Of a stretch of DNA of 64,000 bases, positions 32,188 to 64,000 are shown piece after piece. Below the pieces are notes generated by a model. It was not told where the DNA came from and ran no database searches. It was given only the letters and a program-made list of their open reading frames with translations. Location of the stretch: IMG/VR virus record IMGVR_UViG_3300017970_000189; one strand, given 5' to 3'. The position numbers and the translations under genes are program-made. The stretch's first letter is position 1; the number at the start of each line of letters is the position of its first letter. The stretch is from an uncultured virus (IMG/VR IMGVR_UViG_3300017970_000189). Taxonomy: Duplodnaviria > Heunggongvirae > Uroviricota > Caudoviricetes.

Positions 32188-34002
32188 TTACCCGGTCAAT
32201 TGGAAGAGTCCTTCATGCGCCCTGACCATATTCCCATCTACAACGGCCAGGTCGTTCCTTCTCAAGGTGCTCAAGTAATTGCTGAAAGTCCCTCCGCTCG
32301 ATTCATATCCGGTCTCCTTTCCGAGATCCTCCTTGCTGAGAGGCTCCGGATAGACCTGAACGAGCGCATCCAGCAGCTTCCGTTCCCCGGCAATCAACTT
32401 GTCCCTCCACATCGACAGCAGCTCTTCCGAATTCATCGGACCTTCCGGAGCGCGGCCCCCGAAGATCTCGAGGCCCTTTCCAGTGATCGTCACCTTGTCC
32501 GATTTCTCTTCGATCAGGCCGCCCTTTTTGAGGCGGTTGTAATAATTGCTGAAAGTCCCCCCGCTCATCGTATAGCCGGAAAGCTGCGCGATCTGCGCCT
32601 TGGTCCGCGATCCCGGATTGAATTTGGCCAGGACTTCTAGCATCCTCCGCTCGCCCGCCACCAGCGGCTTTTCTTCCGCATCCTCTTCGGTAGCCTTGGG
32701 TACCCGGGGCCGCTCCAGGAGAGGTTTCAGCCGGTTCTTCGCCAGTTCCCTTGTCTGCTGCTGCGGTGCCTGAGCCTGCGTTCGAAGCGCACTCCCCAAG
32801 GCAATCGCCATCGTGCGCTGATTTGAGGTGAGCGGCGCCTGCGCCGTCGTTCGAAGCACCCCCACGGTACTCCGGAGCGCCCGAGAAGCTTCCTCTACCG
32901 GCTTCCCGAATCCATCCAGCCTTTCCAGGATCTTTTCCGCCCGCCCGATCGCTTTCTCCACCCTCCTGAGCTCCGCTTCCTTGAGGACGGGTACTTCCAC
33001 CTTCCGGATCTCCGTCTTTACCACCGGAGCCGCCTGAACCGTCAGTGCGGCTGCTATGGGCTTGGCTGACAGCTTCGCCTTTAACGACCGGATCTCTGCA
33101 CGCAGCTCCGCCTCCGTCCGCGCCTTTGTTTCCGCTTCCTTGGGGAGATCCGCCAGCTTCGGCAAGAGCGCCCTCATTTTTTCCGGCAACGGCGGGGGTG
33201 CCGCCGCCGAGGGTGATCCGGGCTCCGGATGAGTCGTCACGACAGGACCGACTTTCACCAAGGTCCGGTCGGTCGAGATTGCCGGCCCGAAACAGTAAAA
33301 CTCGCCGGGTTTGAGGTGTTTGAGGCTCTCTTCGAAATCATGCCGGTCCTTGGATCGCACCGAGAAGAGATCCGACGCACGATCAAGGTCGATATCCTCG
33401 ACCGTGTTCCCCACGCACCGGTTGAGCAGTTCAGCCGACGCATTTTTCGACACCTTGCCCAGACGCTGGGTGAAATAGACCGCGCAGATCCCGTGCTTCC
33501 GGCCGTCACAGGCAACATCCACCATAGGTCCAAGCGCCACGCTTTTGTCCTTCTGGGGCGCGAACCGATGAGCCTCATCCACCATCAAGACCAGATCCTG
33601 CCACAGTTTTTTGGGGGCGTTCATGAGCGCCGTGAGGAAGAGCTTAACCCACTCGTGGCGATCAGGATCCTTCAGTCCATATAGGCTGAAGATCGCACTC
33701 GCGTGGTTTTCGAGCAGCCTCTGGCAGACGATCTCGGCCGACCTGATGTCCGTCGGCGTCTCCCCGCCCTGGCCCACCAGAACGTACCCGAACTTCTCCC
33801 TCAGGCTCGGGAATTCTTCGTCACGATCAATGATCCAGGTAGGAACTTTTCCGAAGAACTGCTCTCCCAGACGGCGGAGCGTGCGGCTTTTTCCACCGCC
33901 GCTGGCCGCCTGGACGAGTCCCCGCGTGCGCAGGAAGACCTTGAGATCGATATGAACCGGATTTCCTTTTTGATCTTTACCGAGAATGATCTGCTTCGAC
34001 AT
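32188..34002 (-). CDS. HerA/FtsK-superfamily ATPase with C-terminal winged-HTH repeats
   Basis: AASGGGKS Walker A, MVDEAH Walker B, GRKHG...TQR; two C-terminal AGERxxL...SGGTFSNY repeats. Confidence 0.88.
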   Translation of the reverse strand: MSKQIILGKDQKGNPVHIDLKVFLRTRGLVQAASGGGKSRTLRRLGEQFFGKVPTWIIDRDEEFPSLREKFGYVLVGQGGETPTDIRSAEIVCQRLLENHASAIFSLYGLKDPDRHEWVKLFLTALMNAPKKLWQDLVLMVDEAHRFAPQKDKSVALGPMVDVACDGRKHGICAVYFTQRLGKVSKNASAELLNRCVGNTVEDIDLDRASDLFSVRSKDRHDFEESLKHLKPGEFYCFGPAISTDRTLVKVGPVVTTHPEPGSPSAAAPPPLPEKMRALLPKLADLPKEAETKARTEAELRAEIRSLKAKLSAKPIAAALTVQAAPVVKTEIRKVEVPVLKEAELRRVEKAIGRAEKILERLDGFGKPVEEASRALRSTVGVLRTTAQAPLTSNQRTMAIALGSALRTQAQAPQQQTRELAKNRLKPLLERPRVPKATEEDAEEKPLVAGERRMLEVLAKFNPGSRTKAQIAQLSGYTMSGGTFSNYYNRLKKGGLIEEKSDKVTITGKGLEIFGGRAPEGPMNSEELLSMWRDKLIAGERKLLDALVQVYPEPLSKEDLGKETGYESSGGTFSNYLSTLRRNDLAVVDGNMVRAHEGLFQLTG

Positions 34003-39877: not shown

Positions 39878-40204
39878 TCACTCACGAGACCCTTCCAATC
39901 TCTTCATGTTTTTCACAAGCCTTTGAGCGACTGCGTAAATATCATCCTTTTTGCCTGGAAGCCGTTTCCCCACCATAACCATAATCACGGCGTCGTCCTT
40001 CACCTGGTACAGGATCCGGTATCGACCTCTCCATGCTTGAATGCTTCTATACCCCTCAAGCGTATCTTGAAGAGCCTTCCCCTTGGATAGTGGATTTTTA
40101 GCCAGACCTTCGAAGGTCTCGAAGATCTCTCTCACAATTTTTTTATCTTTGACGGCCTCAAGACACCGATGAGCCTGGGAGGAAACCTGGGTTTTGAAAA
40201 TCAA
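39878..40204 (-). CDS. relE: RelE/ParE-family toxin
   Basis: LAKNP..GKAL...LEGYRS....RYRILY; directly downstream of the antitoxin. Confidence 0.88.
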   Translation of the reverse strand: MIFKTQVSSQAHRCLEAVKDKKIVREIFETFEGLAKNPLSKGKALQDTLEGYRSIQAWRGRYRILYQVKDDAVIMVMVGKRLPGKKDDIYAVAQRLVKNMKRLEGSRE

Positions 40205-40467
40205 AGACCCAGCCTCCTCTTCGACTCCGCAGTCGAGATCACCCGGCCATTCTCAATGTCCTTTACAGCCTTCCTGAACCCCTCCATGAACTTCTCATCC
40301 GAAAGAATTTCTAGAGTTTCCAGAAGGGATTCATAAAGATCTTCGGAAACGATCCTGGCCACAGGCTTTCCTCGACGCGCAATCTGCACACCTCCCCTCA
40401 AGACGCTGACCTCATCGACCAATTTAGGAAGGTGAGCTCTCGCTTCAGTCACGCTCATGGTCTTCAT
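40201..40467 (-). CDS. Phd/YefM-family antitoxin
   Basis: SVTEARAHL..LVDEV...IARRGKPVARIVS...YESLLETLEILS. Confidence 0.93.
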   Translation of the reverse strand: MKTMSVTEARAHLPKLVDEVSVLRGGVQIARRGKPVARIVSEDLYESLLETLEILSDEKFMEGFRKAVKDIENGRVISTAESKRRLGL

Positions 40468-40521: not shown

Positions 40522-43311
40522 TCATGCGCTCTCGACCTCTTCCTTCTCCTCTTCAGGCTCTTCCTTCGGAAACTCGATGACCTGCTTCTTCGATCCCTTT
40601 TGAAGATACCGTTCCGCCAGCTTCCGGATATGGTCAGAACTCACCTTGTTTTCGACCACAGGCTTGTCCGGATCTCGGATACCCTCGATCTGAGCGGTCT
40701 TCAATCCCAACGTCTCCGCGATCACCGGATCCGACCCTCTCTCCGCGACCAGGAAGATCGCTGTCACCGGCTCCTTCTGCCCGTCCCGAAACACCCGGCC
40801 GATGCATTGATCGAGCACTCCCGGGGTCCAATCCAACTCCGCAAAAACCACCGTACGGCAAATACTCTGAAGACCATCCACCCCAACCCCTGAACGAAGC
40901 GACATGAGAAGAACCTTGGTCTCCCCCTTCATGAACCGATCGAGCGCCTCCTGCTTCTTCGTCGCCGACTCGGTTCCCGTGTACATCGCCGGTGCGAGTT
41001 CCGTGAGCCTCGAAAGCAGGATGTCGTACACGGCCCGGTGCCACGCAAAGACCACCACCGGCTCGTCATCGCCATCCACGATCAGGCGGATGAAATCGGC
41101 AATATAGGGCGCCTTCGCAACCCCCGTCGCTTGTCTCATCACCTGATTGAATTCCTCAGTCGCCTTCATCTTGTCCCATCCCGCCGTCTTTTCGTTCGAA
41201 AGGATGATCTTGGCAAGCTGAGAAGCCGAATCGGCGACCTGATTGAGCGCGCTTTCGTCGCTGTCGATATACTGCGGGATCTTGGTGAGAGGAGGAAGTT
41301 CCCGACCCACTTCCTTCCTCGTCCGGCGGAGCATGATGTGCTCGGCCCGAAGATAGGATCCCAGCGCCTTCGGATCCCTTACCGCCGGAGCCCTCCCATC
41401 GTAACTCCTCTCCCCGTAGCACCACTCCCGCAAGAACTCCTGCCAGGTGCCCAGCGCATCCTCCTGGAGCACGTTCACCACGTTCCAGATCTCGCCCCCC
41501 ATGTTGTAGATCGGAGTTCCGGAGGCCCCCAGCCTGAACCTCATCTGCCGCGAGATATGTTCCGCCGCCTTGTATTTATTCGATTCCGCTCTCCTCAATT
41601 CTTGGCATTCATCAAAGATAACGCTCCGCCCATAAGCCGCCAAAGTCTCCGCCCAACCGTTCAGTTTGTGATAATTGACGATGATGACATCAGGACCTTT
41701 CCCTTTGATCCTGGGAAGCTCATAAGGCGTCCCCTTCGTGATGATGTGAGTCGTCAGCAACGGCATGAAGCGCCAAGTCATGCTCTGCCACTGCATCGGC
41801 ATCGTTCCCGTCAGTGTCACCACGATCGCCGGCAGCGTCCGCTTGTCGGTGAGCGCGGCCAGGGCCGAAACGGTATTGTGAGTGACGATATACCCATCTG
41901 TCACATAAAGTTGTCTTTTTGATGAAGTCGAGATACAGACCGTCTCCTTCAATCCCATAGACGTTGCCGAATGGATCGGCCTATAAAGCCTCTGTGGCTC
42001 CCACCGAATTGCTTTGCTTTTGACCGTGAACGGATTGAAGGGAGTCCGAACAAAAACGTTGTAAGACAACCTTCCTTTCTTCTTCTCTCCCTTATATTTG
42101 TAAGTTGGAATGCGTGATGTCAGAGTGGTCACTCCACCCAATCCCATCACCAGTTCCCGAATCCCGTCCTTCAGCCTCTCGGATGAAGTCGAGTACGAAG
42201 TCACCCCATGCTTCTTTTCGCATGTTCCATCCGTATCCATCAGCCCCTGTAAAAGCTGAAGGCGCTCTCCTTTGGAGGCCCTGAAATAGACCTCAGGAAT
42301 GAACTTCTCATGAGATTCGAGGCCGGCAAGCCCAAGTAACCGAATGGTTTCGAGAAGAGGGTTCGGGCCGGACTCTGCAGTTCGGCTGATCCTCCAATCA
42401 CAACCACGATCATGAACAAGCTCAACTCCCACTGGTAGCCTGAGCCTGACCCCCTCTATAAAATCTTGATCGCTCTTTGAAATAAGGACCGCATGTTCTT
42501 TGAAAGTGCCATCCCCAAGAAGCGCCCCAAGGAGATAAGGGTCCAGCGGCAATTTCCCTTGCGCCTTGAATTCCACGGCAGCGGTCAAAGGAAGGAAATA
42601 CATATGCCGAGCTTCCTTCTTCCTTCCCATGTACTTGACCAGCTTTTCCCGGAATTCTTTTAGAGGAAGAATTCTCGACGTACCCCGATTCTTGTCATTC
42701 GTGTCCTGAACATGCCAGAGGTGCTCGTCACAACATTCCGTGGAGAATCCATCCGCCATCTCCACCTTAAAGACTTCCTTTGCCCCCCGAGGATGGATTC
42801 CTGTTATTTCAGAAATTCCCCCATCAGGATCGATGATCTCATCCCCTTTCTTAAGATCTCCAATCTTTCTCCACCCGGAAGGGGTCAACACTTTTGCATC
42901 GAGAGGTTGCGCCTTCCCCGTTCCGAGCTCGTCGGCCAGCAACAAGAATCCGCGCTCAAGCAAAATACTCGCCGCCAGTTTCTGATAATCCCGCGGCGGG
43001 AGACCCATCTTGAATTCCCGCCCGGTATAGTTCTGGTCGATGAGCTGATCGAGCGTCGCCATCGTCTCGATGTGGCGTTCGCTTCCCCGGTTCAGGATCC
43101 TCCGGTCTCCCGGAGAAACATCCATCGGATAGCGCCCGAGAAACCAGACGATCTCCCGACAGACCTCATCCGTGTTCTGAAGTCTCACCACGCCGTGCTC
43201 CGCCGCCCAGATGCGGGCAAAGATTCTCTTCGCCCGAAGAAGCAGGTGAGGTTCCCCCTCGATGTGCCACTTCCCGTCCAGAAGCCAGACTTTCCCGAAA
43301 ATCCGCGCCAT
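40522..43311 (-). CDS. SNF2-family helicase interrupted by an intein
   Basis: LLADELGTGK/T, IFDECQ, ASGTP, MLRRT, GVGVDGL, QCIGRVFR. Confidence 0.93.
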   Translation of the reverse strand: MARIFGKVWLLDGKWHIEGEPHLLLRAKRIFARIWAAEHGVVRLQNTDEVCREIVWFLGRYPMDVSPGDRRILNRGSERHIETMATLDQLIDQNYTGREFKMGLPPRDYQKLAASILLERGFLLLADELGTGKAQPLDAKVLTPSGWRKIGDLKKGDEIIDPDGGISEITGIHPRGAKEVFKVEMADGFSTECCDEHLWHVQDTNDKNRGTSRILPLKEFREKLVKYMGRKKEARHMYFLPLTAAVEFKAQGKLPLDPYLLGALLGDGTFKEHAVLISKSDQDFIEGVRLRLPVGVELVHDRGCDWRISRTAESGPNPLLETIRLLGLAGLESHEKFIPEVYFRASKGERLQLLQGLMDTDGTCEKKHGVTSYSTSSERLKDGIRELVMGLGGVTTLTSRIPTYKYKGEKKKGRLSYNVFVRTPFNPFTVKSKAIRWEPQRLYRPIHSATSMGLKETVCISTSSKRQLYVTDGYIVTHNTVSALAALTDKRTLPAIVVTLTGTMPMQWQSMTWRFMPLLTTHIITKGTPYELPRIKGKGPDVIIVNYHKLNGWAETLAAYGRSVIFDECQELRRAESNKYKAAEHISRQMRFRLGASGTPIYNMGGEIWNVVNVLQEDALGTWQEFLREWCYGERSYDGRAPAVRDPKALGSYLRAEHIMLRRTRKEVGRELPPLTKIPQYIDSDESALNQVADSASQLAKIILSNEKTAGWDKMKATEEFNQVMRQATGVAKAPYIADFIRLIVDGDDEPVVVFAWHRAVYDILLSRLTELAPAMYTGTESATKKQEALDRFMKGETKVLLMSLRSGVGVDGLQSICRTVVFAELDWTPGVLDQCIGRVFRDGQKEPVTAIFLVAERGSDPVIAETLGLKTAQIEGIRDPDKPVVENKVSSDHIRKLAERYLQKGSKKQVIEFPKEEPEEEKEEVESA
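41875..42912 (-). mobile_element. Class 3 intein (about 346 aa) with LAGLIDADG homing endonuclease
   Basis: Starts AQPLDA, ends VTHN/T; EHLW, TVCI and VTHN give the WCT signature; LLGALLGDG and LLQGLMDTDG. Confidence 0.92.
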
Positions 43312-44518: not shown

Positions 44519-44970
44519 GCCTTCACCATCGCCGGCGCCTTGGGACACGCTCCGAAGGGATCAATCCCCGGCGGGCCCCCGGACATGCTCTTCCCCATCC
44601 AGCAGCCGCATCCGTACGAACACTCGCTCGTCAAAAATATCCCGATCTTCTCCCTCAATTCGAAGCCGTTGTACTTATGCGTTCCCATGTCGCCAAAGGC
44701 GCGAGGTTCACGCGGCTCCTCATGCTTCCTCACGATTTTTCCTCTGAATCTATCGAGAGCCTTGCAACGCCCGAAGCACATGCACGGACTGTGCCTCAGG
44801 CTCTCTTCCTCCACCCAATGATTTCTCTCCCGGCCATCCACGAGCAGCGCCGCGATCTTGACTTTCTTCTTCATCTCGAGAATCCGGCACGGAATCTCCG
44901 CCGTAAAGCAATAGCCGCGCGTGCTCTTCCGCTTCCAGATCATCGGATGCTTCTTTTCGTCGTACTCCAT
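44515..44970 (-). CDS. Hypothetical Cys-containing protein
   Basis: GGAGAGG RBS and TGATG overlap. Confidence 0.65.
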   Translation of the reverse strand: MEYDEKKHPMIWKRKSTRGYCFTAEIPCRILEMKKKVKIAALLVDGRERNHWVEEESLRHSPCMCFGRCKALDRFRGKIVRKHEEPREPRAFGDMGTHKYNGFELREKIGIFLTSECSYGCGCWMGKSMSGGPPGIDPFGACPKAPAMVKA

Positions 44971-46226
44971 CAGAGTCCTCTCCAAAAATTGACAGGCTCG
45001 AGGCAGCCGCAGCGGACTCTCACCACATGAGGGTCTCCGGGAACTACGTCAACCTTCATTTCGAACGGGCCGGAGATGAACTCCTTGTTTTGATCAAATG
45101 GGTCGTCCTTGCAGGTGGGCTTTACGCACTTGCTCATCTTCCACCATTCGCCCGTTTTTGGATACGCCGGATAGTCGAACTCTCCATCCGAAAGGCCGAT
45201 GAAGAAGGAATTCCCCTCGGTGTCCCAGACCTCAACCCTGATCTCATGCTCAAGAACCTTCGAGATCCTTCCCAGGAGCCCCACAGCGGGAGATGTGCGA
45301 CGCCTGACGCGCACCCAGGCGCCCGGCGTGTATTTCTCCACGAGCGACGGCTTCCAAGGTCTGACAACTCCACTCGGATGGGGAATTCCACACGGGCATC
45401 TGTCCTGCCCATGCCCATCATTGATCCAGGAGTGAACGTGGCCGCTTCCTTTCTCGGCCTTCTCTACCAGGAGCCAGCCCTCCCAATACTCCCTGATCCT
45501 TTGGGTGATATCCGCCCGGAACTTTTCGAAAAACTTCATCGCCTCTTCGGTCAAAAATGCCGGCTTGAGGTCCTCTGGAATATATCCCCAGATCACTGCG
45601 AGGACTTGGAACCAATCCTTGGTTTGGATGAAATTTGCAAAGGCCGTTGTGAATTCCCGGGCTACATAATCTTCTGGGTCCCGCATCCATTCCAAGTACA
45701 TCCCGGTAAACGTCTCAGGATCACCCTTAGCCTTGAGATGAATTCCCCATTCCTTAAGGAGTCCCTTGATAAACGTCCCCTGAATATGATGAAAAATTTC
45801 AAGCGTCGGCTGTGTCGCTTCGGCTTTCACCGCCGGCCGCTTCTTGACCTTCCTTCCTCTCCAAATATCCACAAACTCATCCAGCGTCAGATCTCCGTCC
45901 ACCATCCGGAGAAGGTCCTTCCGGTAGACCTCAAACTCCACCCCCTCTTCGGGAGGATGGACCGGCGTATACCAAGGCGTGAACCCGGCATTCACCGTCA
46001 CCGTCTGCCTGACATCTGCACGCCCTTCGCACCGCCTGGCGAACTCATCGCAGGAGACCGGATCGATCCGCCTGAAAATCCGGTTTCTTCTTTCTTCCGC
46101 ACGGTCTCTGAGAAATTTGGTCAGTACAGCAACCACAATACCCGCAAGAAAAAGCCACGGGAGCCCGTAGCTCAGCACTGTCATGCCGTCCGAACAGCCA
46201 TGCAAGAGCGCGTTCCATTTATCCAC
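44970..46226 (-). CDS. Chimeric membrane-anchored protein with segments homologous to 63684..64000 and 58305..60551
   Basis: GTG with GGAGG RBS; N-terminal TM; two within-window homologies aligned by eye. Confidence 0.8.
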   Translation of the reverse strand: MDKWNALLHGCSDGMTVLSYGLPWLFLAGIVVAVLTKFLRDRAEERRNRIFRRIDPVSCDEFARRCEGRADVRQTVTVNAGFTPWYTPVHPPEEGVEFEVYRKDLLRMVDGDLTLDEFVDIWRGRKVKKRPAVKAEATQPTLEIFHHIQGTFIKGLLKEWGIHLKAKGDPETFTGMYLEWMRDPEDYVAREFTTAFANFIQTKDWFQVLAVIWGYIPEDLKPAFLTEEAMKFFEKFRADITQRIREYWEGWLLVEKAEKGSGHVHSWINDGHGQDRCPCGIPHPSGVVRPWKPSLVEKYTPGAWVRVRRRTSPAVGLLGRISKVLEHEIRVEVWDTEGNSFFIGLSDGEFDYPAYPKTGEWWKMSKCVKPTCKDDPFDQNKEFISGPFEMKVDVVPGDPHVVRVRCGCLEPVNFWRGL

Positions 46227-46238
46227 TTCAACCTCCCT

Positions 46239-46772
46239 CTACCCGATGCCGCCAACTTTTTCCACCGCCACCTTCCGTTCCTTTTCCCCCTTCTCCTCTA
46301 CCTTCTCGAACTCCATCTTCGCCCCCGGAAACGACTTCATCAGCTTGAGCGTCGTGCGTCCGGACAGCGGATCCGCCCCGAGCTCGATCAGATTTTTCAT
46401 CGTGATCCCGCTTTTCGGTCCCACCATGACCACCCCGATCTCCGGAACCTCCCATGAAAGCGTGAGCCCCGTCGCATCCCACTCCTTGCCCATCATCGTC
46501 CAGGCAAGCCCGAACTCCCCGGCAAAGATCTCCCTCGATTCCTCCAGACACAGCATCAGCCACTTCACTTTCGCCTTGCAGAACCGCGTCGCCTTCGCCC
46601 CGCATTTGCAAAGCTCCTGCGGCTCAAGAAGCACCTCGCAGGATTCCGCTCCCTCCGCAAATTTGATCATCCAGCCCATCGTCTGGCAACGCTCTCCGGC
46701 CCTGAAGAAATTTCCGATCTGCCGCGCTCCGTCAAGAAGCCGTTCGGACGTCGGCCGCTCGATAACGGTCAC
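46239..46772 (-). CDS. Hypothetical protein
   Basis: GTGA overlap with AAGGAG RBS. Confidence 0.7.
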   Translation of the reverse strand: MTVIERPTSERLLDGARQIGNFFRAGERCQTMGWMIKFAEGAESCEVLLEPQELCKCGAKATRFCKAKVKWLMLCLEESREIFAGEFGLAWTMMGKEWDATGLTLSWEVPEIGVVMVGPKSGITMKNLIELGADPLSGRTTLKLMKSFPGAKMEFEKVEEKGEKERKVAVEKVGGIG

Positions 46773-47524
46773 CGAAGCTCCTTGAGAATTTTCATCCGAA
46801 CCTTATCAATTCCTTGTTTAATTTCAGTCTCCGAAAATCGAAGAACCTTAAATCCGACGGCCCTTAAGACCTTTGATTGAAGACTGTCTTTTTTCTTACT
46901 TTTACTATGCCAGTAATTTCCATCCACATAAATCGCAAGCTTCTCAGGCCTAAGAAGAAAATCTGGAAATGTAAATCCTCTCAATGGATTTGAATTAGTG
47001 ACAAACCTAATATTTTCTTTCTTAAGTATATTTTTGACGCTCAACTCAATACTGGTTGGACCACGATGCCGGAACATACAACGTCTTGAGCAAAAAAACT
47101 TCCCGTGTTTTCTCGAATCATATGGCAATTTACACCGCTTACAAATTCTCCTATATTTTTTCTTTGTAAGCTCCTTCTGACACTGAACAGAACAAAATCG
47201 ACACTTGTTATATCGTTTCTTCGATCGCGTAACCCAGACAATCTTTCTGCAGTTTTCACAAGTGTATCTACATGGCCTATTTTTATTAATAGAGCGTGCT
47301 TTATCTTGACAACGCCTGCTACAATATCTGCCACGCCCTCTTGCATAATTTGCCTTACCTACGGACATTCTTTTAGTGCAAATTTTACAAGACTTAATTA
47401 CCCTACCTCTCCCTGATCTACTCCTTCTGTAGCAAAGATCACAACAAAAATAATGACGGCTCTTATTCGGATTTCTTTTTTCGAAGAACTTTCGACCACA
47501 ATAAGCACACGTCTTAGACTTCAT
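46769..47524 (-). CDS. Low-GC endonuclease: Cys repeats plus DUF559/Vsr-like domain
   Basis: Four CxxC...FCSxxC-type repeats; PTSIE...PDF...IYVDGNYWH...D...GFKVLRF; markedly AT-rich. Confidence 0.88.
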   Translation of the reverse strand: MKSKTCAYCGRKFFEKRNPNKSRHYFCCDLCYRRSRSGRGRVIKSCKICTKRMSVGKANYARGRGRYCSRRCQDKARSINKNRPCRYTCENCRKIVWVTRSKKRYNKCRFCSVQCQKELTKKKYRRICKRCKLPYDSRKHGKFFCSRRCMFRHRGPTSIELSVKNILKKENIRFVTNSNPLRGFTFPDFLLRPEKLAIYVDGNYWHSKSKKKDSLQSKVLRAVGFKVLRFSETEIKQGIDKVRMKILKELR

Positions 47525-53150: not shown

Positions 53151-55031
53151 TTACGAATCTGCATCTGGAGCGTTTCCTACGGGAAAAAGGTCCTCAGTGG
53201 GGTCCTCAGGTACGACTACCGGGGTGGGTTTATGGTCGGAAGGGGTAACGGCTGGGGTGGTTGGGGAGGGGGTCCCGTGACCGTTCCCGTTACCGTTTGT
53301 TCCTCCACCCTGGATGATGGACTTCATCCAGAGACGTTGGACGCCGCCGCCCCTGCTGAAGCGTTTTGTATCGCTCTTCCAGCCCATGTCCTTGAGCTTC
53401 TCCCGAAGGTGATTTTTAGTGATTTTGGCATCGGTTTCGCCCATGAACTCGTGAAACGTGGCGAACTTGAAGAACTGGTGCTCGTCGTCGAACCCGGGGT
53501 ACTTCTTGAGGAGCCCGACATCCGGGTCCTTCTTGGCTTCCGCGAGGAATTCTTCGAGGGCGAGTTCGATGGCTCCGGCCGGCCGGGAGTCCTCTGGAGC
53601 CTCCTTTTCTTCGTAAAGATTGTTCTTCTTGGCCTCGTCGATCATGGTCATCCACTCCGAATCGTGAAGGTCCGAGGTAAGGGGTAGGCCATGTTGGTCA
53701 AGGACTTCCTGACGGAAGTCCTTGAATTTTGAGAAGCGGGAGTTGTCCAGGGTGATGATGTATTCCTTGGCCTCCCTTTCGAGAGTAACGGTCCAACGGG
53801 ATGGCTGGGACTTGAACTGGATGAGATGGAGGAACTTGAAGTCGACGGGTTGTTCGTCTCGGCGATGGCCTTTTTTCCTGGGAAGGCGGGTATTGATGCT
53901 CTTCAAAAGTTTTTCGTAGCTGGCCCGGATCGGGCCTTCCGGGTGCTTGTCGTGGATGAGTTCTTCGATATGCTTCCTGCCGGTAAGACCCTTGAGATTC
54001 AGATTTTTGTAGGTATCCGCGACGTCCTTGAGCCTTTTTTTCGTGTCGCCTTTGTTGAGTTCAGAGGCAATTTCGACGACTTTTCTCGTGCAGCTTTCCT
54101 TGACCCCGGTCCGGATGAACCAGCCGGCGACGGACATGGCCATATTGTGGCGATCGCCTTCGATCCAGATCTGGGAGACGAGTTTGCCGAGTTCTTGGAT
54201 GGTTTCCTCGGGGAGTTCGATCGTGGGGGTGGGGAGGGGATCTGGAGTACCTTCCGGGGAGGCAGCCTGTTGGAGGAAGGTCTCGGAAGGGGTGGCATCG
54301 GCCTTGGGGGTAGCTGGCGAAGAGGGAGTCGGGGAGGCGGAGGGTGAGACGGGAGCTCCGACCAAGCGGCGTTCTTCCTCGATCGGGAGGAAGTCGAAAT
54401 CATCCAGGTTGTAGCGGAATTCGGGATGCCACCAGGAGATTTCGACGGTTCGTACGGGATCGTAATTGAAATTTGTGGTCCAGGGGATGCGGAGGACGCG
54501 GGCGAGATCGATGGACTGGGTATCGGCGCCGAAGAATTTGGCGAGGGCCCGGTTGATGGCCTTGAGGTGCCAGAGATCGTTGCCGGTGACGAGCTCCTTG
54601 GTGAGCCAGAAGACTTGGATACCGCCTCCCGAGCGGACGATGATGGAAGGTTTCCGGGGGAATTCGAGGAGGGCTTTCCGGGCGATTTCCTCGGGGACGG
54701 TTTTGCCTTTGTGGCCCTGGTCGGCAAAGTCGAATTCGGCCCAGATGCAGCCTGAGGAGAGGGCGAGGGCTTCGGTGCCGCGGGAGTTTGAGGCCCATTT
54801 TTCCCGGCGGAGGCAGACGCCCATGTAGACGTTGTTCGAGCGGTTGTGATTGGTAGCGGAGGAGAGGAAGCTGTCGATGGAGTCCGGGTAGGAGAAGGGG
54901 TACGCGACCTTGAAGCCCTCTTTGCGCAGTTTCGAGCCGATGATGGTGAGTTCTGCTACGCCCTTCTCATCGCCCCAAATCGCCTGAAGGAACTCCTTAG
55001 CCGATATTTGAGGAACGGCCGGGGGAGCCAT
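53151..55031 (-). CDS. RepB-like (AEP superfamily) primase with PriCT-like region
   Basis: NVYMGV, WAEFD, IIVRSGGGIQVFW, DLARVLRIPWTTN, EGDRH. Confidence 0.82.
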   Translation of the reverse strand: MAPPAVPQISAKEFLQAIWGDEKGVAELTIIGSKLRKEGFKVAYPFSYPDSIDSFLSSATNHNRSNNVYMGVCLRREKWASNSRGTEALALSSGCIWAEFDFADQGHKGKTVPEEIARKALLEFPRKPSIIVRSGGGIQVFWLTKELVTGNDLWHLKAINRALAKFFGADTQSIDLARVLRIPWTTNFNYDPVRTVEISWWHPEFRYNLDDFDFLPIEEERRLVGAPVSPSASPTPSSPATPKADATPSETFLQQAASPEGTPDPLPTPTIELPEETIQELGKLVSQIWIEGDRHNMAMSVAGWFIRTGVKESCTRKVVEIASELNKGDTKKRLKDVADTYKNLNLKGLTGRKHIEELIHDKHPEGPIRASYEKLLKSINTRLPRKKGHRRDEQPVDFKFLHLIQFKSQPSRWTVTLEREAKEYIITLDNSRFSKFKDFRQEVLDQHGLPLTSDLHDSEWMTMIDEAKKNNLYEEKEAPEDSRPAGAIELALEEFLAEAKKDPDVGLLKKYPGFDDEHQFFKFATFHEFMGETDAKITKNHLREKLKDMGWKSDTKRFSRGGGVQRLWMKSIIQGGGTNGNGNGHGTPSPTTPAVTPSDHKPTPVVVPEDPTEDLFPVGNAPDADS

Positions 55032-58304: not shown

Positions 58305-60551
58305 ATGCCAGGATCCAAGCGCCCTTTCACCGCCGAGCAGAAGGAGCGCATCCTCTATCAGGCCTCTCAGAATATCGGGATTTCTGAGATCGCGCGCGAA
58401 CTCAACGTCGAGCCTCGTCGCGTCAGCGGCTACATCCGGACCATGGTCAACGCCGGGAAGGTTCCGGATCTTCCTGCCTTCAGGTCGACCTCTCCGGAAG
58501 TCGTGGCGATGGGAAGCATCCAGGCTCCGGTCATGCCGGTTCCGCCTCAAGCAGCCGTAGCTGCCCCTCCGGTAGTGCCGCCAGTCGCGCCTCAAGCGGC
58601 GCCCGCGCCTCAACCGACGGCTCAAACCGTGCCTGCGCAACCGGTTTATGTAACGCCGCCCGCGGCAGCTCCCGTGGGCGACGGCTGGTACGGCGGCCGT
58701 CCGATCTATGGAAGCATTTCGGGATTCCAGAATCCTCTCCAGCAGGTGAAGACGGTCGTCGAGCGGAAGATTCCGAACGACGGGATCCTGGGCGAGCACT
58801 ACGGCGAGATGAGCCGCGAGCGCATCTGTGAAATTTACGGGGAAGGCCTCTACAAGGTGATCCGTTCGGAACCCGGCAAGCCTCCCGTCGAGCATGAAGT
58901 CCTGGCGAGCGCCGCTTATGGGCCGCCGAAGATACCGAAGAGGACGGTCTCCAGTTTAGAGGGACAGGGACGCTCTGGCTTCCAGCGTCCTTGGATGTCC
59001 CAGCAGCGTCCGTGGGACCGGGGAGGGGAGGAGGACGACGGGCGTCCGGCGCGTCCTTATGCCCCGCCGTCCTACTATAACCGCCCGGATCCCGGTGCCT
59101 ACGATTATCGCCATAACTCGATGGCGGATGCCGCGGCCGCCGCGACGACCGAAGCGATCAAGCAGATGGGAACGCTGCACGAAAAGACGATCGAGCAGCT
59201 CGAAAAATCGCGTTCGAACGGCCCGGACTCGTTCATGACGAACTTCCTGAAGGAGCAGCAGACGGCCTGGCAGCAGAAATATCAGGAAGATGAACGGCGC
59301 CGGGCAGAGGAGCGGAAGGACGAGGAAGCCAAGTGGGAGCGCCGGCAGCGCGAAATCGACGCGGACTACCGGCGCCGGCAGGACGAGGCCCGCGGGGCCC
59401 ACGAGCGCGAACTCGACCGCCTGAAGGCGGAGACCGCCGCGCGCGAAGCCGCCGCGAAGGAAGAGCGCAAGATGCTCATGGAGCTCGAGGACAAGAAGCT
59501 CCAGGTGATCCGCGATGAGCACAAGATGCGCCAGGAGGCCCTCCAGGAGGAGCTCAAGCGGAACCGCGAGGAGCTGAAGGAGATTCAGGAGAAGACCGAG
59601 AAGCGCATCTCGGAAGTCAACCAGACGACCGCAGCCCATATCGCCGAGTCGAACGAGCGCCTGGAGAAGGAGCTCGAGCGCGAGCGCGAAAACCTGGAGC
59701 GCGAGCACAAGCTCAAGGAAAAGGCGATGGACCAGCGCAACAACCTTGAGCAGCAGATCATTGAGATCAAGAAGGAGTCCCTCCAGAACCAGGGAGGCGA
59801 CCAGATCTTCCAGACCATCAATACCGTGATCAAGGAGTTCTCCAAGGGCCTAGAGAAGATCGTCGATCTGAAGAAGATCGAGGCGATGACTCCGGAGGCC
59901 CAGGCGGCCGCCGTGGCCCGCGGAGCGATCGACGGGAACGTGATGGGCGAGCCGAAGAGGGAGCCGGCCGAGGCTCCCAAGCCGCAGCAGCAGCAGAATA
60001 ATCAGGCGGCTCCTCCTCCGCCAAATGCCCAGGCGACCAAGGTTAATGGGAACGGTAACGGTGCATCCGCTGCTCCCAAGGGGGAACAGAAAAGCGAGGA
60101 GAGCCAGATGGAGCAGATCATCCAGGACATGCTGGACAAGCCCTTCTTCAAGCAGGTCCTCAAGGAGTGGTGCTTCCACATCAAGCGGGAGCAGGACCCC
60201 ACGACCTTCGCCAACATGTTCATGGAGTGGATGCGCGACCCCCTCGACCACGAAGGCCGCAAAGCCACCACCATGTTCGCGAATTTCATGAAGCCGCGCG
60301 AATGGTCGGACATGCTGAAGGTCATGAGTCCCAAGCTCGATAAGGACACGGTCAAGGTCTTCCAGAGCGAGGCGGCAACAGACTTCTACGATGGCTTCAA
60401 GGCCATGGTAGTGGAGCAGATCCGGGATTACTGGGAACAGTTCCTGGCCGCGAGGAAGGCTCAGCGCGCGGCCCAGACGGCGGCTGGAGAGGCTCCTGGG
60501 GCGGAAGCGCCCAGCGAGGCCGCCGCTCAGGAGGGCAACGGCAAGAAGTAA
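58305..60551 (+). CDS. Large protein: N-terminal HTH, Pro-rich region, long coiled coil, C-terminal helical domain (possible scaffold/assembly protein)
   Basis: ISEIARELNV...VSGYI HTH; long Glu/Arg/Lys heptad region; strong codon bias. Role inferred. Confidence 0.8.
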   Translation: MPGSKRPFTAEQKERILYQASQNIGISEIARELNVEPRRVSGYIRTMVNAGKVPDLPAFRSTSPEVVAMGSIQAPVMPVPPQAAVAAPPVVPPVAPQAAPAPQPTAQTVPAQPVYVTPPAAAPVGDGWYGGRPIYGSISGFQNPLQQVKTVVERKIPNDGILGEHYGEMSRERICEIYGEGLYKVIRSEPGKPPVEHEVLASAAYGPPKIPKRTVSSLEGQGRSGFQRPWMSQQRPWDRGGEEDDGRPARPYAPPSYYNRPDPGAYDYRHNSMADAAAAATTEAIKQMGTLHEKTIEQLEKSRSNGPDSFMTNFLKEQQTAWQQKYQEDERRRAEERKDEEAKWERRQREIDADYRRRQDEARGAHERELDRLKAETAAREAAAKEERKMLMELEDKKLQVIRDEHKMRQEALQEELKRNREELKEIQEKTEKRISEVNQTTAAHIAESNERLEKELERERENLEREHKLKEKAMDQRNNLEQQIIEIKKESLQNQGGDQIFQTINTVIKEFSKGLEKIVDLKKIEAMTPEAQAAAVARGAIDGNVMGEPKREPAEAPKPQQQQNNQAAPPPPNAQATKVNGNGNGASAAPKGEQKSEESQMEQIIQDMLDKPFFKQVLKEWCFHIKREQDPTTFANMFMEWMRDPLDHEGRKATTMFANFMKPREWSDMLKVMSPKLDKDTVKVFQSEAATDFYDGFKAMVVEQIRDYWEQFLAARKAQRAAQTAAGEAPGAEAPSEAAAQEGNGKK

Positions 60552-63683: not shown

Positions 63684-64000
63684 ATGTTCAGACCCCCCGA
63701 GTATGCAGCGCTGATCAACCCGATCGCCTGCAATGCGTTCGCCATGCGGTGCGAAGGCCGCGCCGACGTCAAGCAGACCGTGACGGTGGACACCGGGCTC
63801 ACCCCCGGCGGCACCCCGATCACGCTCAACAGCCTGGACTTCACGACGCAGAGCGCGGTCTGCGACGCGAAGATGTTCGTGCTCCCGTACGTGGAGCTCG
63901 TGACCCCGGTGTCCCCGGACTACCTGGGCCAGTTCCACACGGCGCTGCTCACCTTCTCGATCGACGGCGAAAAGGTGATCAACCAGAGCGCGATCCAGAA
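63684..64000 (+). CDS. Highly biased beta-rich protein, candidate jelly-roll major capsid protein (truncated)
   Basis: Not in ORF track. GGAG RBS; MFRPPEYAALINPIACNAFAMRCEGRADVKQTVTV...LLTFSIDGEKVI; almost all third positions G/C. Capsid identity is inference. Confidence 0.5.
   Translation, partial: MFRPPEYAALINPIACNAFAMRCEGRADVKQTVTVDTGLTPGGTPITLNSLDFTTQSAVCDAKMFVLPYVELVTPVSPDYLGQFHTALLTFSIDGEKVINQSAIQ

Follow-up and report, generated by a model that had tools for sequence, protein, structure and literature searches.

How does a single gene come to carry, in frame, pieces that resemble two other genes of the same genome, and what has become of those pieces since? This question is raised by the gene at 44970..46226, on the minus strand of a 64,000-nucleotide stretch of DNA (the window) from an uncultured Caudoviricetes virus, IMG/VR record IMGVR_UViG_3300017970_000189. 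The initial annotation had described its product, a protein of 418 residues that we call P0001, as a chimera built from two late genes, a candidate capsid gene beginning at 63684 and a scaffold gene at 58305..60551 (product P0002). We observed that P0001 is indeed an in-frame mosaic with segments in common with these two genes of the divergent block, but the idea of a single chimeric event did not hold. The segment shared with P0002 is an old module, and only a 36-residue piece near the N-terminus is, from sequence comparison, a later, lineage-specific, in-frame capture, the core of which has probably been kept by selection. P0001 is thus an unusual module capture in an uncharacterised protein family.

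A real gene with two internal similarities

BLASTP aligned residues 134-252 of P0001 with residues 596-714 of P0002 without gaps (47/119 identical, E 8e-27), and residues 54-89 with residues 11-46 of the 63684 product (23/36 identical, E 5e-16). The latter product was compared as 105 residues, its gene being cut by the window end. When P0001 was searched over the whole window by tblastn, only P0001 itself and these two places were found at E < 0.1. The residue counts given earlier were also recovered: 42 of 98 for the stretch FIKGLL..IREYWE (P0001 152-249) was reproduced exactly, and 21 of 31 against the 63684 gene agreed with the count on the BLASTP alignment.

The possibility had been raised that the fusion is an assembly artefact, i.e. 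a chimeric contig uniting unrelated reads. We observed that the junctions are carried by independent contigs from three peat samples. A 29,959-bp Logan contig (X1, which may be the source sample) runs across 44900-46300 with 0 differences. A 292-bp contig from another study (X2) covers 45948-46239 with 14 differences, and includes the start codon, the transmembrane (TM) segment, the entire insert and 12 nt beyond it. A 431-bp contig from a third study (X3) matches 45998-46300 with 0 differences. Two assemblies, with contigs of 426,845 and 242,051 bp, also contain the identical protein. Since contigs from three samples cross the junctions, the mosaic is not an assembly artefact; nothing was found in favour of this explanation, and we consider its chance negligible.

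The open reading frame (ORF) at 44970..46226 is a real gene, as indicated by a ribosome-binding-like motif with a GTG start, a coding pattern of G+C content and a conserved family of homologs. The motif, GGGAGG (46232..46237, minus strand), lies 5-6 nt 5' of the GTG. The stop codon of the upstream gene (46239-46241) is 12 nt away, and there is an overlap of 16 nt with the next gene. The G+C content at the three codon positions (0.58/0.42/0.65) resembles that of the neighbouring genes. Neutral evolution of the segments had also been considered as an outcome. The X2 strain differs from the window in 23 codons, 15 of them synonymous and 8 non-synonymous, establishing purifying selection. The ratios of non-synonymous to synonymous substitution rates (dN/dS) for separate segments were estimated from two comparisons, one with the short contigs of this single strain and one between the copies within the window.

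The 36-residue insert and its counterpart in the jelly-roll gene

The insert (residues 54-89; 45960..46067, minus strand) corresponds to positions 63714-63821 of the 63684 gene, and matches it at 82/108 nucleotides (76%) and 24/36 third positions. It was missing from 8/8 homologs; in these, the place behind the TM segment is taken by a short linker of variable sequence. Within it lies a 17-residue core, FARRCEGRADVRQTVTV (45993..46043, minus strand), identical to the donor-like stretch at 15/17 residues and 44/51 nucleotides. By the Nei-Gojobori method, the whole insert gave a synonymous divergence (dS) of 0.63 and a dN/dS of 0.33, while the core (FA-RCEGRADV-QTVTV) gave a dS of 0.55 and a dN/dS of 0.10, with 5 synonymous and 2 non-synonymous differences. 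Since the jelly-roll copy hardly varies, neutral drift of the copy in P0001 would be expected to have left about 10 core replacements, and 2 were seen. The identity is not accounted for by recent gene conversion, as the dS of the insert is not near zero. The insert is retained in the X2 strain, where three of its codons have changed, 2 synonymously and 1 non-synonymously. The insert also shares the variable jelly-roll residues of its own sub-lineage, reading ADVKQTVTV, as against NDLEQTLVV in the related locus L002.

The counterpart gene (63684..64000, plus strand, up to the window end) holds the 5' part of a protein of about 240 residues. Its family comprises 83 clusters of about 230-250 residues, up to 95% identical to the window fragment. 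The first 26 residues are almost invariant; in a set of 63 sequences, most of residues 2-25 do not vary. AlphaFold2 (AF2) modelled a single jelly roll over residues 1-180, followed by a disordered Pro/Ala/Gly tail, with the copied stretch falling on predicted strands 7-12 (in part), 17-26 and 29-36. The best fold match was the HHIV-2 capsid protein (Z 7.3, rmsd 3.4 A, 112 residues aligned), tied with non-viral jelly rolls; further matches included SPV1, P23-77, cement and decoration proteins and nucleoplasmin. SPV1 was also the best match in Foldseek (E 1.4e-3), and the matches in BFVD were mixed. The earlier label of capsid was therefore not upheld as worded, the protein being a single jelly roll with middling fold matches; it is a structural-type protein, and at most a candidate capsid protein. 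No match was found for it in Pfam, PHROGs, NCBIfam or PADLOC, and a profile search gave 0 sequence matches in the PDB. The jelly-roll scan of genome_contigs found nothing, and neither did an exact-match scan of viral_contigs with the window end.

A profile of the jelly-roll family matched P0001 at E 1.2e-8, over positions 11-43 only; the 153 other non-jelly-roll proteins compared all stayed at E 0.4 or above. A word-based search with P0001 residues 48-100 for other chimeras returned 1 candidate, P0001 itself, which is weak evidence. P0001 bears a fragment rather than the full domain (residues 1-180), and its model has no sandwich; hence it is not a member of the jelly-roll family. Both cysteines and the RCEGR turn of the jelly-roll N-terminus are kept in P0001, and the first 10 invariant residues were not copied.

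An RNA-level explanation of the shared stretch was tried and rejected, since each copy lies in sense and the 5' codons of the jelly-roll gene show ordinary third-position divergence (identity 19/28 in codons 1-28 versus 38/59 later). This divergence indicates that the jelly-roll N-terminus is constrained at the level of the protein and not of the RNA.

Domain X and the membrane protein family

The segment shared with P0002, which we call domain X, is all-helical in P0001 (residues 134-252; 45471..45827, minus strand; pLDDT, the model confidence, 95-98). The two copies are identical at 184/357 nucleotides and 43/119 third positions, with dS saturated, and domain X is hence the older of the two shared segments. 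It was seen in 9/10 members of the P0001 family (P0001, P0004-P0010 and P0095), with P0011 lacking it, in 51 long proteins like that of the 58305 gene, and in a further 62 that are shorter. It is thus both old and widely distributed, and sequence comparison suggests that the middle of the family has repeatedly been made of P0002-type modules. In quick trees, the domain X of the family fell in 4-5 places; the nearest rows to that of P0001 were a stand-alone protein, P0096 and the P0002 of its own genome, and the end branch was 1.36 for P0001 versus 0.14 for P0002. Repeated capture of domain X as such is not claimable, because uniting the 10 family domains costs 10.7 log-likelihood units (approximately unbiased test, p-AU 0.25); a single origin is not claimable either.

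P0002 itself (748 residues; 58305..60551, plus strand) has a helix-turn-helix (HTH) N-terminus, assigned from the matches of its L002 homolog, then Pro/Ala-rich linkers, a long charged coiled coil, and domain X at 60090-60446. It had no match in Pfam, and in PHROGs only phrog_18562 (unknown function, E 0.004), with no scaffold-family match. The earlier scaffold label did not stand as worded, the product being an HTH and coiled-coil protein, and from its sequence the word scaffold would be a guess.

P0001 begins with a single TM segment, as previously noted (best 19-mer at residues 17-35; 46122..46178, minus strand; Kyte-Doolittle 2.17), which falls within a helix modelled by AF2 at residues 16-53. 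The flanking charges are -1 on the N side and +3 on the C side; by the positive-inside rule, the short N-terminus would lie outside and the bulk of the protein in the cytoplasm. A hydrophobic 19-mer was present within the first 40 residues of 10/10 family members (Kyte-Doolittle 1.64-2.49), with a positive flank on the C side. Beyond the insert is a pair of signature helices, ..FEVYRKDLLRMVDG..DEFVDIWRGRKVKKRP (residues 96-131; 45834..45941, minus strand; pLDDT 92-95). Its signature, FExYRKDLxRM..DEFVxxWRGRKVxKRP, contains the residues F98 E99 Y101 R102 K103 D104 L105 .. W122 R123 G124 R125 K126, invariant in 9 sequences, and the helix pair was also seen alone in other TM proteins. Domain X follows, and then a His/Cys knuckle, HVHSW..CPCG (residues 263-280; 45387..45440, minus strand), recognised from alignment columns and modelled with low confidence.

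The next segment is a KOW/SH3-like beta barrel (residues 291-356; 45159..45356, minus strand), and the fold proposed for it in the initial annotation was confirmed by superposition. Residues 293-353 of the model superposed on the NusG C-terminal domain with Z 9.1 and rmsd 1.3 A over 55 residues; for the 291-356 fold as a whole, NusG/Spt5 KOW, NdhS and PsaE gave Z 8.1-9.1 and rmsd 1.3-3.4 A over 54-60 residues. P0001 had no KOW motif of Pfam (PF00467) and no Pfam family at E<=0.01, so that the likeness is one of fold only, and sharing so small a fold with KOW/SH3-like barrels shows no function. Unlike NusG/Spt5 KOW, the barrel is fused to a Cys-containing extension, GEWW...PVNFGRG, and occurs in tandem in other proteins of the clade. 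This C-terminal sub-module, GEWW...C..CGC..PVNFxRG (44973..45158, minus strand), forms a repeated unit together with the barrel, and the unit recurs in P0097, P0124, P0126 and P0176. P0001 ends in the complete barrel/GEWW/PVNF(G/W)RG arrangement, with invariant R306, V307, S312, P313, A314, E360, W361, W362, P411, N413 and G417. The mean pLDDT of the whole AF2 model was 81.6, with domain X modelled over residues 150-260. In the 740-residue P0176, the KOW/GEWW/PVNFGRG unit stands about four times in tandem.

P0001 had 8 homologs at 27-37% identity, in addition to P0095, and the family as we use it comprises P0001, P0004-P0011 and P0095 (10 members). These share the N-terminal hydrophobic segment, the invariant helix pair, a variable middle, and the C-terminal barrel with GEWW...PVNFGRG. 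A FKTIN-like motif was present in six homologs (P0006-P0011), and P0002 bears FKTINxVIxEFSKGL at about residues 500-530, just before domain X. A family profile collected 256 proteins at E <= 0.001. Among them were about seven full-length clusters, dozens of P0002-like proteins of 640-850 residues matching in the C-terminal region only, many stand-alone domain X proteins, proteins with 1-4 KOW/GEWW units, and proteins with the TM segment and signature lacking domain X. Collagen-like Gly-X-Y stretches were observed in the variable middle of P0005, P0008, P0010, P0011 and P0095.

P0001 itself had no match in Pfam, PHROGs, NCBIfam or PADLOC. In PADLOC, 0 families were found for P0001, P0002, the jelly-roll protein and five neighbours, in a library of host systems that covers phage exclusion proteins poorly. 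A tblastn search of the phage collection gave no match, and the ESM Atlas no usable match. A scan for the P0001 family gave no locus in viral_contigs or genome_contigs; in metagenome_contigs it turned up one of 5.6 kb. The only family membership that we claim for P0001 is that of the unnamed TM/signature/KOW-GEWW-PVNFGRG family.

Possible role and genomic setting

Our tentative preference, held at somewhat less than even odds, is that P0001 is a cytoplasm-facing membrane adaptor displaying interaction modules common to both proteins of the structural block. P0001 would be a functional, lineage-specific variant of an accessory single-pass membrane family found in virus-like elements of 236-427 kb. 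The family would have been assembled from shuffled modules (TM segment, signature helix pair, variable middle and KOW-like/GEWW/PVNFGRG unit), with the FKTINxVIxEFSKGL motif, domain X or both, as in the C-terminal half of P0002, making up the middle. Later, and in this lineage alone, the 5' part of the jelly-roll gene contributed 36 codons, inserted in frame just past the TM segment. P0001 would thereby present the surfaces of the P0002 C-terminus and of the jelly-roll N-terminal hairpin at the inner face of the membrane, and could recruit partners recognising those surfaces, coupling the assembly of P0002 and the jelly-roll protein, or DNA bound to P0002, to the membrane.

Several observations weigh against this adaptor role. 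The core was chosen after viewing the alignment, and 36 codons are a small sample; the insert is seen in one lineage only, with no independent replicate. It is changed at 5/16 invariant or near-invariant jelly-roll positions, three of them invariant (N12D, A18E, M21R), and two of the lost residues became charged. Its pLDDT is 41-63, and it was modelled partly as helix rather than as a beta hairpin. These lost residues and the low-confidence model indicate that the insert is not a folded jelly-roll element and cannot pack as it does in the jelly roll; it is at most a linear or hairpin epitope. Domain X, for its part, had no sequence match in the PDB by profile and none in Pfam. The gene is placed among replication genes, outside the structural block. 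Against the two IMG/VR relatives, the family profile had the P0002 homolog as its sole match in G001 (236 kb) and no match in G002 (266 kb). Since the family is missing from both, it is accessory, whereas a tether essential to assembly should be part of the core. A complex prediction of P0001 50-262 with residues 1-185 of P0013, run without controls, scored 0.00 and 0.00, which speaks neither for nor against the adaptor; P0013 is a jelly-roll cluster representative, 94% identical to the first 105 residues of the window's protein.

Alternatively, the family may have an unrelated role of its own, for example the organisation of replication at the membrane as by phi29 p16.7, with the insert a tolerated by-product of illegitimate recombination. 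The insert occupies the permissive juxtamembrane site of the homologs' short variable linker, the low model confidence and the charged replacements at invariant positions are as expected of such a by-product, and its flanks are relaxed, as seen from the dN/dS of the whole against that of the core. Selection on the downstream domains would preserve the frame anyway, and the gene lies among nuclease, single-stranded DNA-binding protein (SSB), helicase and primase genes. However, at a dS of 0.55-0.63 a neutral tract would be expected to carry many more than 2 core replacements, there is no in-frame deletion, and the insert persists in the X2 strain; we consider this explanation unlikely. The initial annotation had instead suggested a decoy. 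The tethered copies would then act as a dominant-negative mimic, sequestering or poisoning assembly partners of incoming or related elements, and causing superinfection exclusion or interference. An accessory and patchy gene, missing from G001 and G002, with a membrane anchor, a place outside the structural block and a fast-evolving domain X would suit this role, as would the retention of residues specific to the sub-lineage of its own jelly-roll gene. Against it, no defence or exclusion family known to PADLOC was matched, five of the 16 conserved jelly-roll positions are altered, and the genome of origin would be poisoned too, unless timing separates the two; such a decoy seems to us improbable.

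The hairpin-like peptide could also be a recognition tag. Whatever chaperone, protease, packaging factor or modifying enzyme acts on the jelly-roll protein would read it, and P0001 would have gained it to undergo the same treatment, for example processing, modification or uptake into the particle. Within its family, the jelly-roll protein varies least at its N-terminus, which is constrained as protein, and P0001 retains the two cysteines and the RCEGR turn. A precedent for short targeting peptides common to unrelated proteins is described in phage T4 (PMC3012670). The peptide in P0001 is internal and membrane-adjacent, however, and not N-terminal, it lacks the 10 residues at the very start of the jelly roll, and no protease or chaperone was identified; we hold a shared tag to be doubtful, much as the decoy. 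A bolder reading takes P0001 as a tethered mimic of two assembly interfaces, those of the jelly-roll N-terminal hairpin and of the P0002 C-terminal domain, which nucleates particles on the membrane or traps relatives in a dominant-negative manner, in elements that would be very large, membrane-associated, non-tailed bacterial viruses. With no tailed-phage head, terminase or sheath genes recognised, a single jelly roll as the most conserved structural protein and a HerA/FtsK-like ATPase, the elements could be of this kind, although we regard the reading as a whole as quite improbable.

The adaptor that we favour can be compared with known systems. Scaffolding proteins of the P22 type have a coat-binding C-terminal domain, and satellites encode capsid or scaffold mimics (SaPI CpmB, P4 Sid), assembly-protein mimics that redirect or interfere with assembly. 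P0002 is like the former in having a small helical C-terminal domain on a long coiled coil beside structural genes; it is unlike them in its HTH N-terminus and in having no scaffold-family match, and domain X has no solved relative. To our knowledge, none of the known capsid or scaffold mimics is membrane-anchored. The membrane proteins p16.7 and p1 of phi29 are described as organising membrane-associated DNA replication (PMC4974454); they are encoded with replication genes, as is P0001, and have an N-terminal anchor and a cytoplasmic interaction domain by which viral components are brought to the membrane, an arrangement that P0001 would share. The likeness is architectural only, with no sequence or family match in Pfam or PHROGs. 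P0001 is much larger, with domain X, a KOW-like barrel and a structural-protein piece, and comes from an unrelated host and type of element. The T4 capsid-targeting sequence is a short peptide common to otherwise unrelated proteins of one virus, thought to guide them to one assembly (PMC3012670). It is N-terminal and carried by soluble scaffolding-core cargo, while the peptide in P0001 is internal, beside a TM segment, and derives from jelly-roll residues 11-46. Mosaic phage proteins are common; here a short part of the best-conserved structural-type protein was apparently grafted beside the anchor of an accessory protein and then selected. It adjoins a domain shared with a coiled-coil protein, which gives two candidate interaction surfaces in a clade with few known functions. 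The 17-residue peptide and domain X could thus serve as handles for the partners of the invariant jelly-roll N-terminus and for membrane-organised assembly or replication. If both the adaptor and the decoy fail, P0001 remains a dated, exon-like module capture within one genome.

P0001 is located in a long minus-strand block with replication genes, among them a primase-polymerase-like gene (53151-55031), a UvrD-type helicase, an SSB, a PD-(D/E)XK nuclease and a SNF2 helicase carrying a LAGLIDADG intein. The two genes that it resembles are in a divergent plus-strand block beginning near 55.4 kb. The label of early region, given previously to P0001, comes from its position inside the replication-gene block alone, and is provisional. 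The sole related locus with context (L001) has the PD-(D/E)XK nuclease and a 177-residue gene upstream of the family member and a 156-residue Cys-rich gene downstream, in the same order as the window, which has an extra endonuclease gene.

As for G001 and G002, which CheckV rates as 90% and 92% complete, the jelly-roll gene is at the contig end in each. The block from P0002 to the jelly-roll gene of G001 is syntenic with the window, and at the place syntenic to P0001 in G001 other genes follow the 160-residue homolog. Searches of PHROGs with 107 large ORFs of G001 and with 63 ORFs in the initial 80 kb of G002, the sequence after the jelly-roll gene included, recognised no tailed-phage head, portal, sheath or canonical terminase. 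PF05065, PF03237 and PF04984 had no match over G001 and G002. A literature search for such elements, judged on titles and abstracts, showed no relevant paper. The two relatives carry instead collagen-like fibre ORFs (in G002, downstream of the jelly-roll gene), glycosyltransferases, an integrase, many DNA methyltransferases and RNA ligases. Both break inside the jelly-roll gene, at L002 10001-10505 in one and L003 1-285 in the other, one at the 3' part and one at the 5' part, which points to a genome end there or to an assembly break that recurs.

Some further features of the window were observed. The 603-residue product of 32188-34002 (minus strand) is a HerA/FtsK-like P-loop ATPase with a winged-helix region. 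It is kept in G001 (L017 9056-10864, minus strand), and gave the only terminase-labelled match (phrog_2666, E 3.6e-8) not due to the intein of 40522-43311. The latter gene (minus strand) encodes a 929-residue SNF2-type helicase with a LAGLIDADG domain at residues 351-406, and the intein best accounts for its matches to PHROG families labelled terminase, primase and helicase loader (residues ~120-480). Adjoining Phd/YefM antitoxin and ParE toxin genes lie within the element at 39878-40467 (minus strand). Upstream of P0001, the ORF at 46769-47524 (minus strand, 251 residues) has a very low G+C content (0.35/0.44/0.35 by codon position), a Cys-rich N-terminal half and a Vsr/DUF559-type endonuclease at its C-terminus. 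It separates the PD-(D/E)XK nuclease and 177-residue genes, which adjoin in L001, and looks like a recently inserted homing-type endonuclease. The 156-residue gene has short homologs in G001 and G002. An apparent stop inside these homologs was considered as recoding and rejected, as the gene there is a shorter one with upstream stops. In one frame, the region around this short homolog (L006/L007) gives the same translation in G001 and G002 for about 230 residues, and as the records differ elsewhere, it may be a recently exchanged segment.

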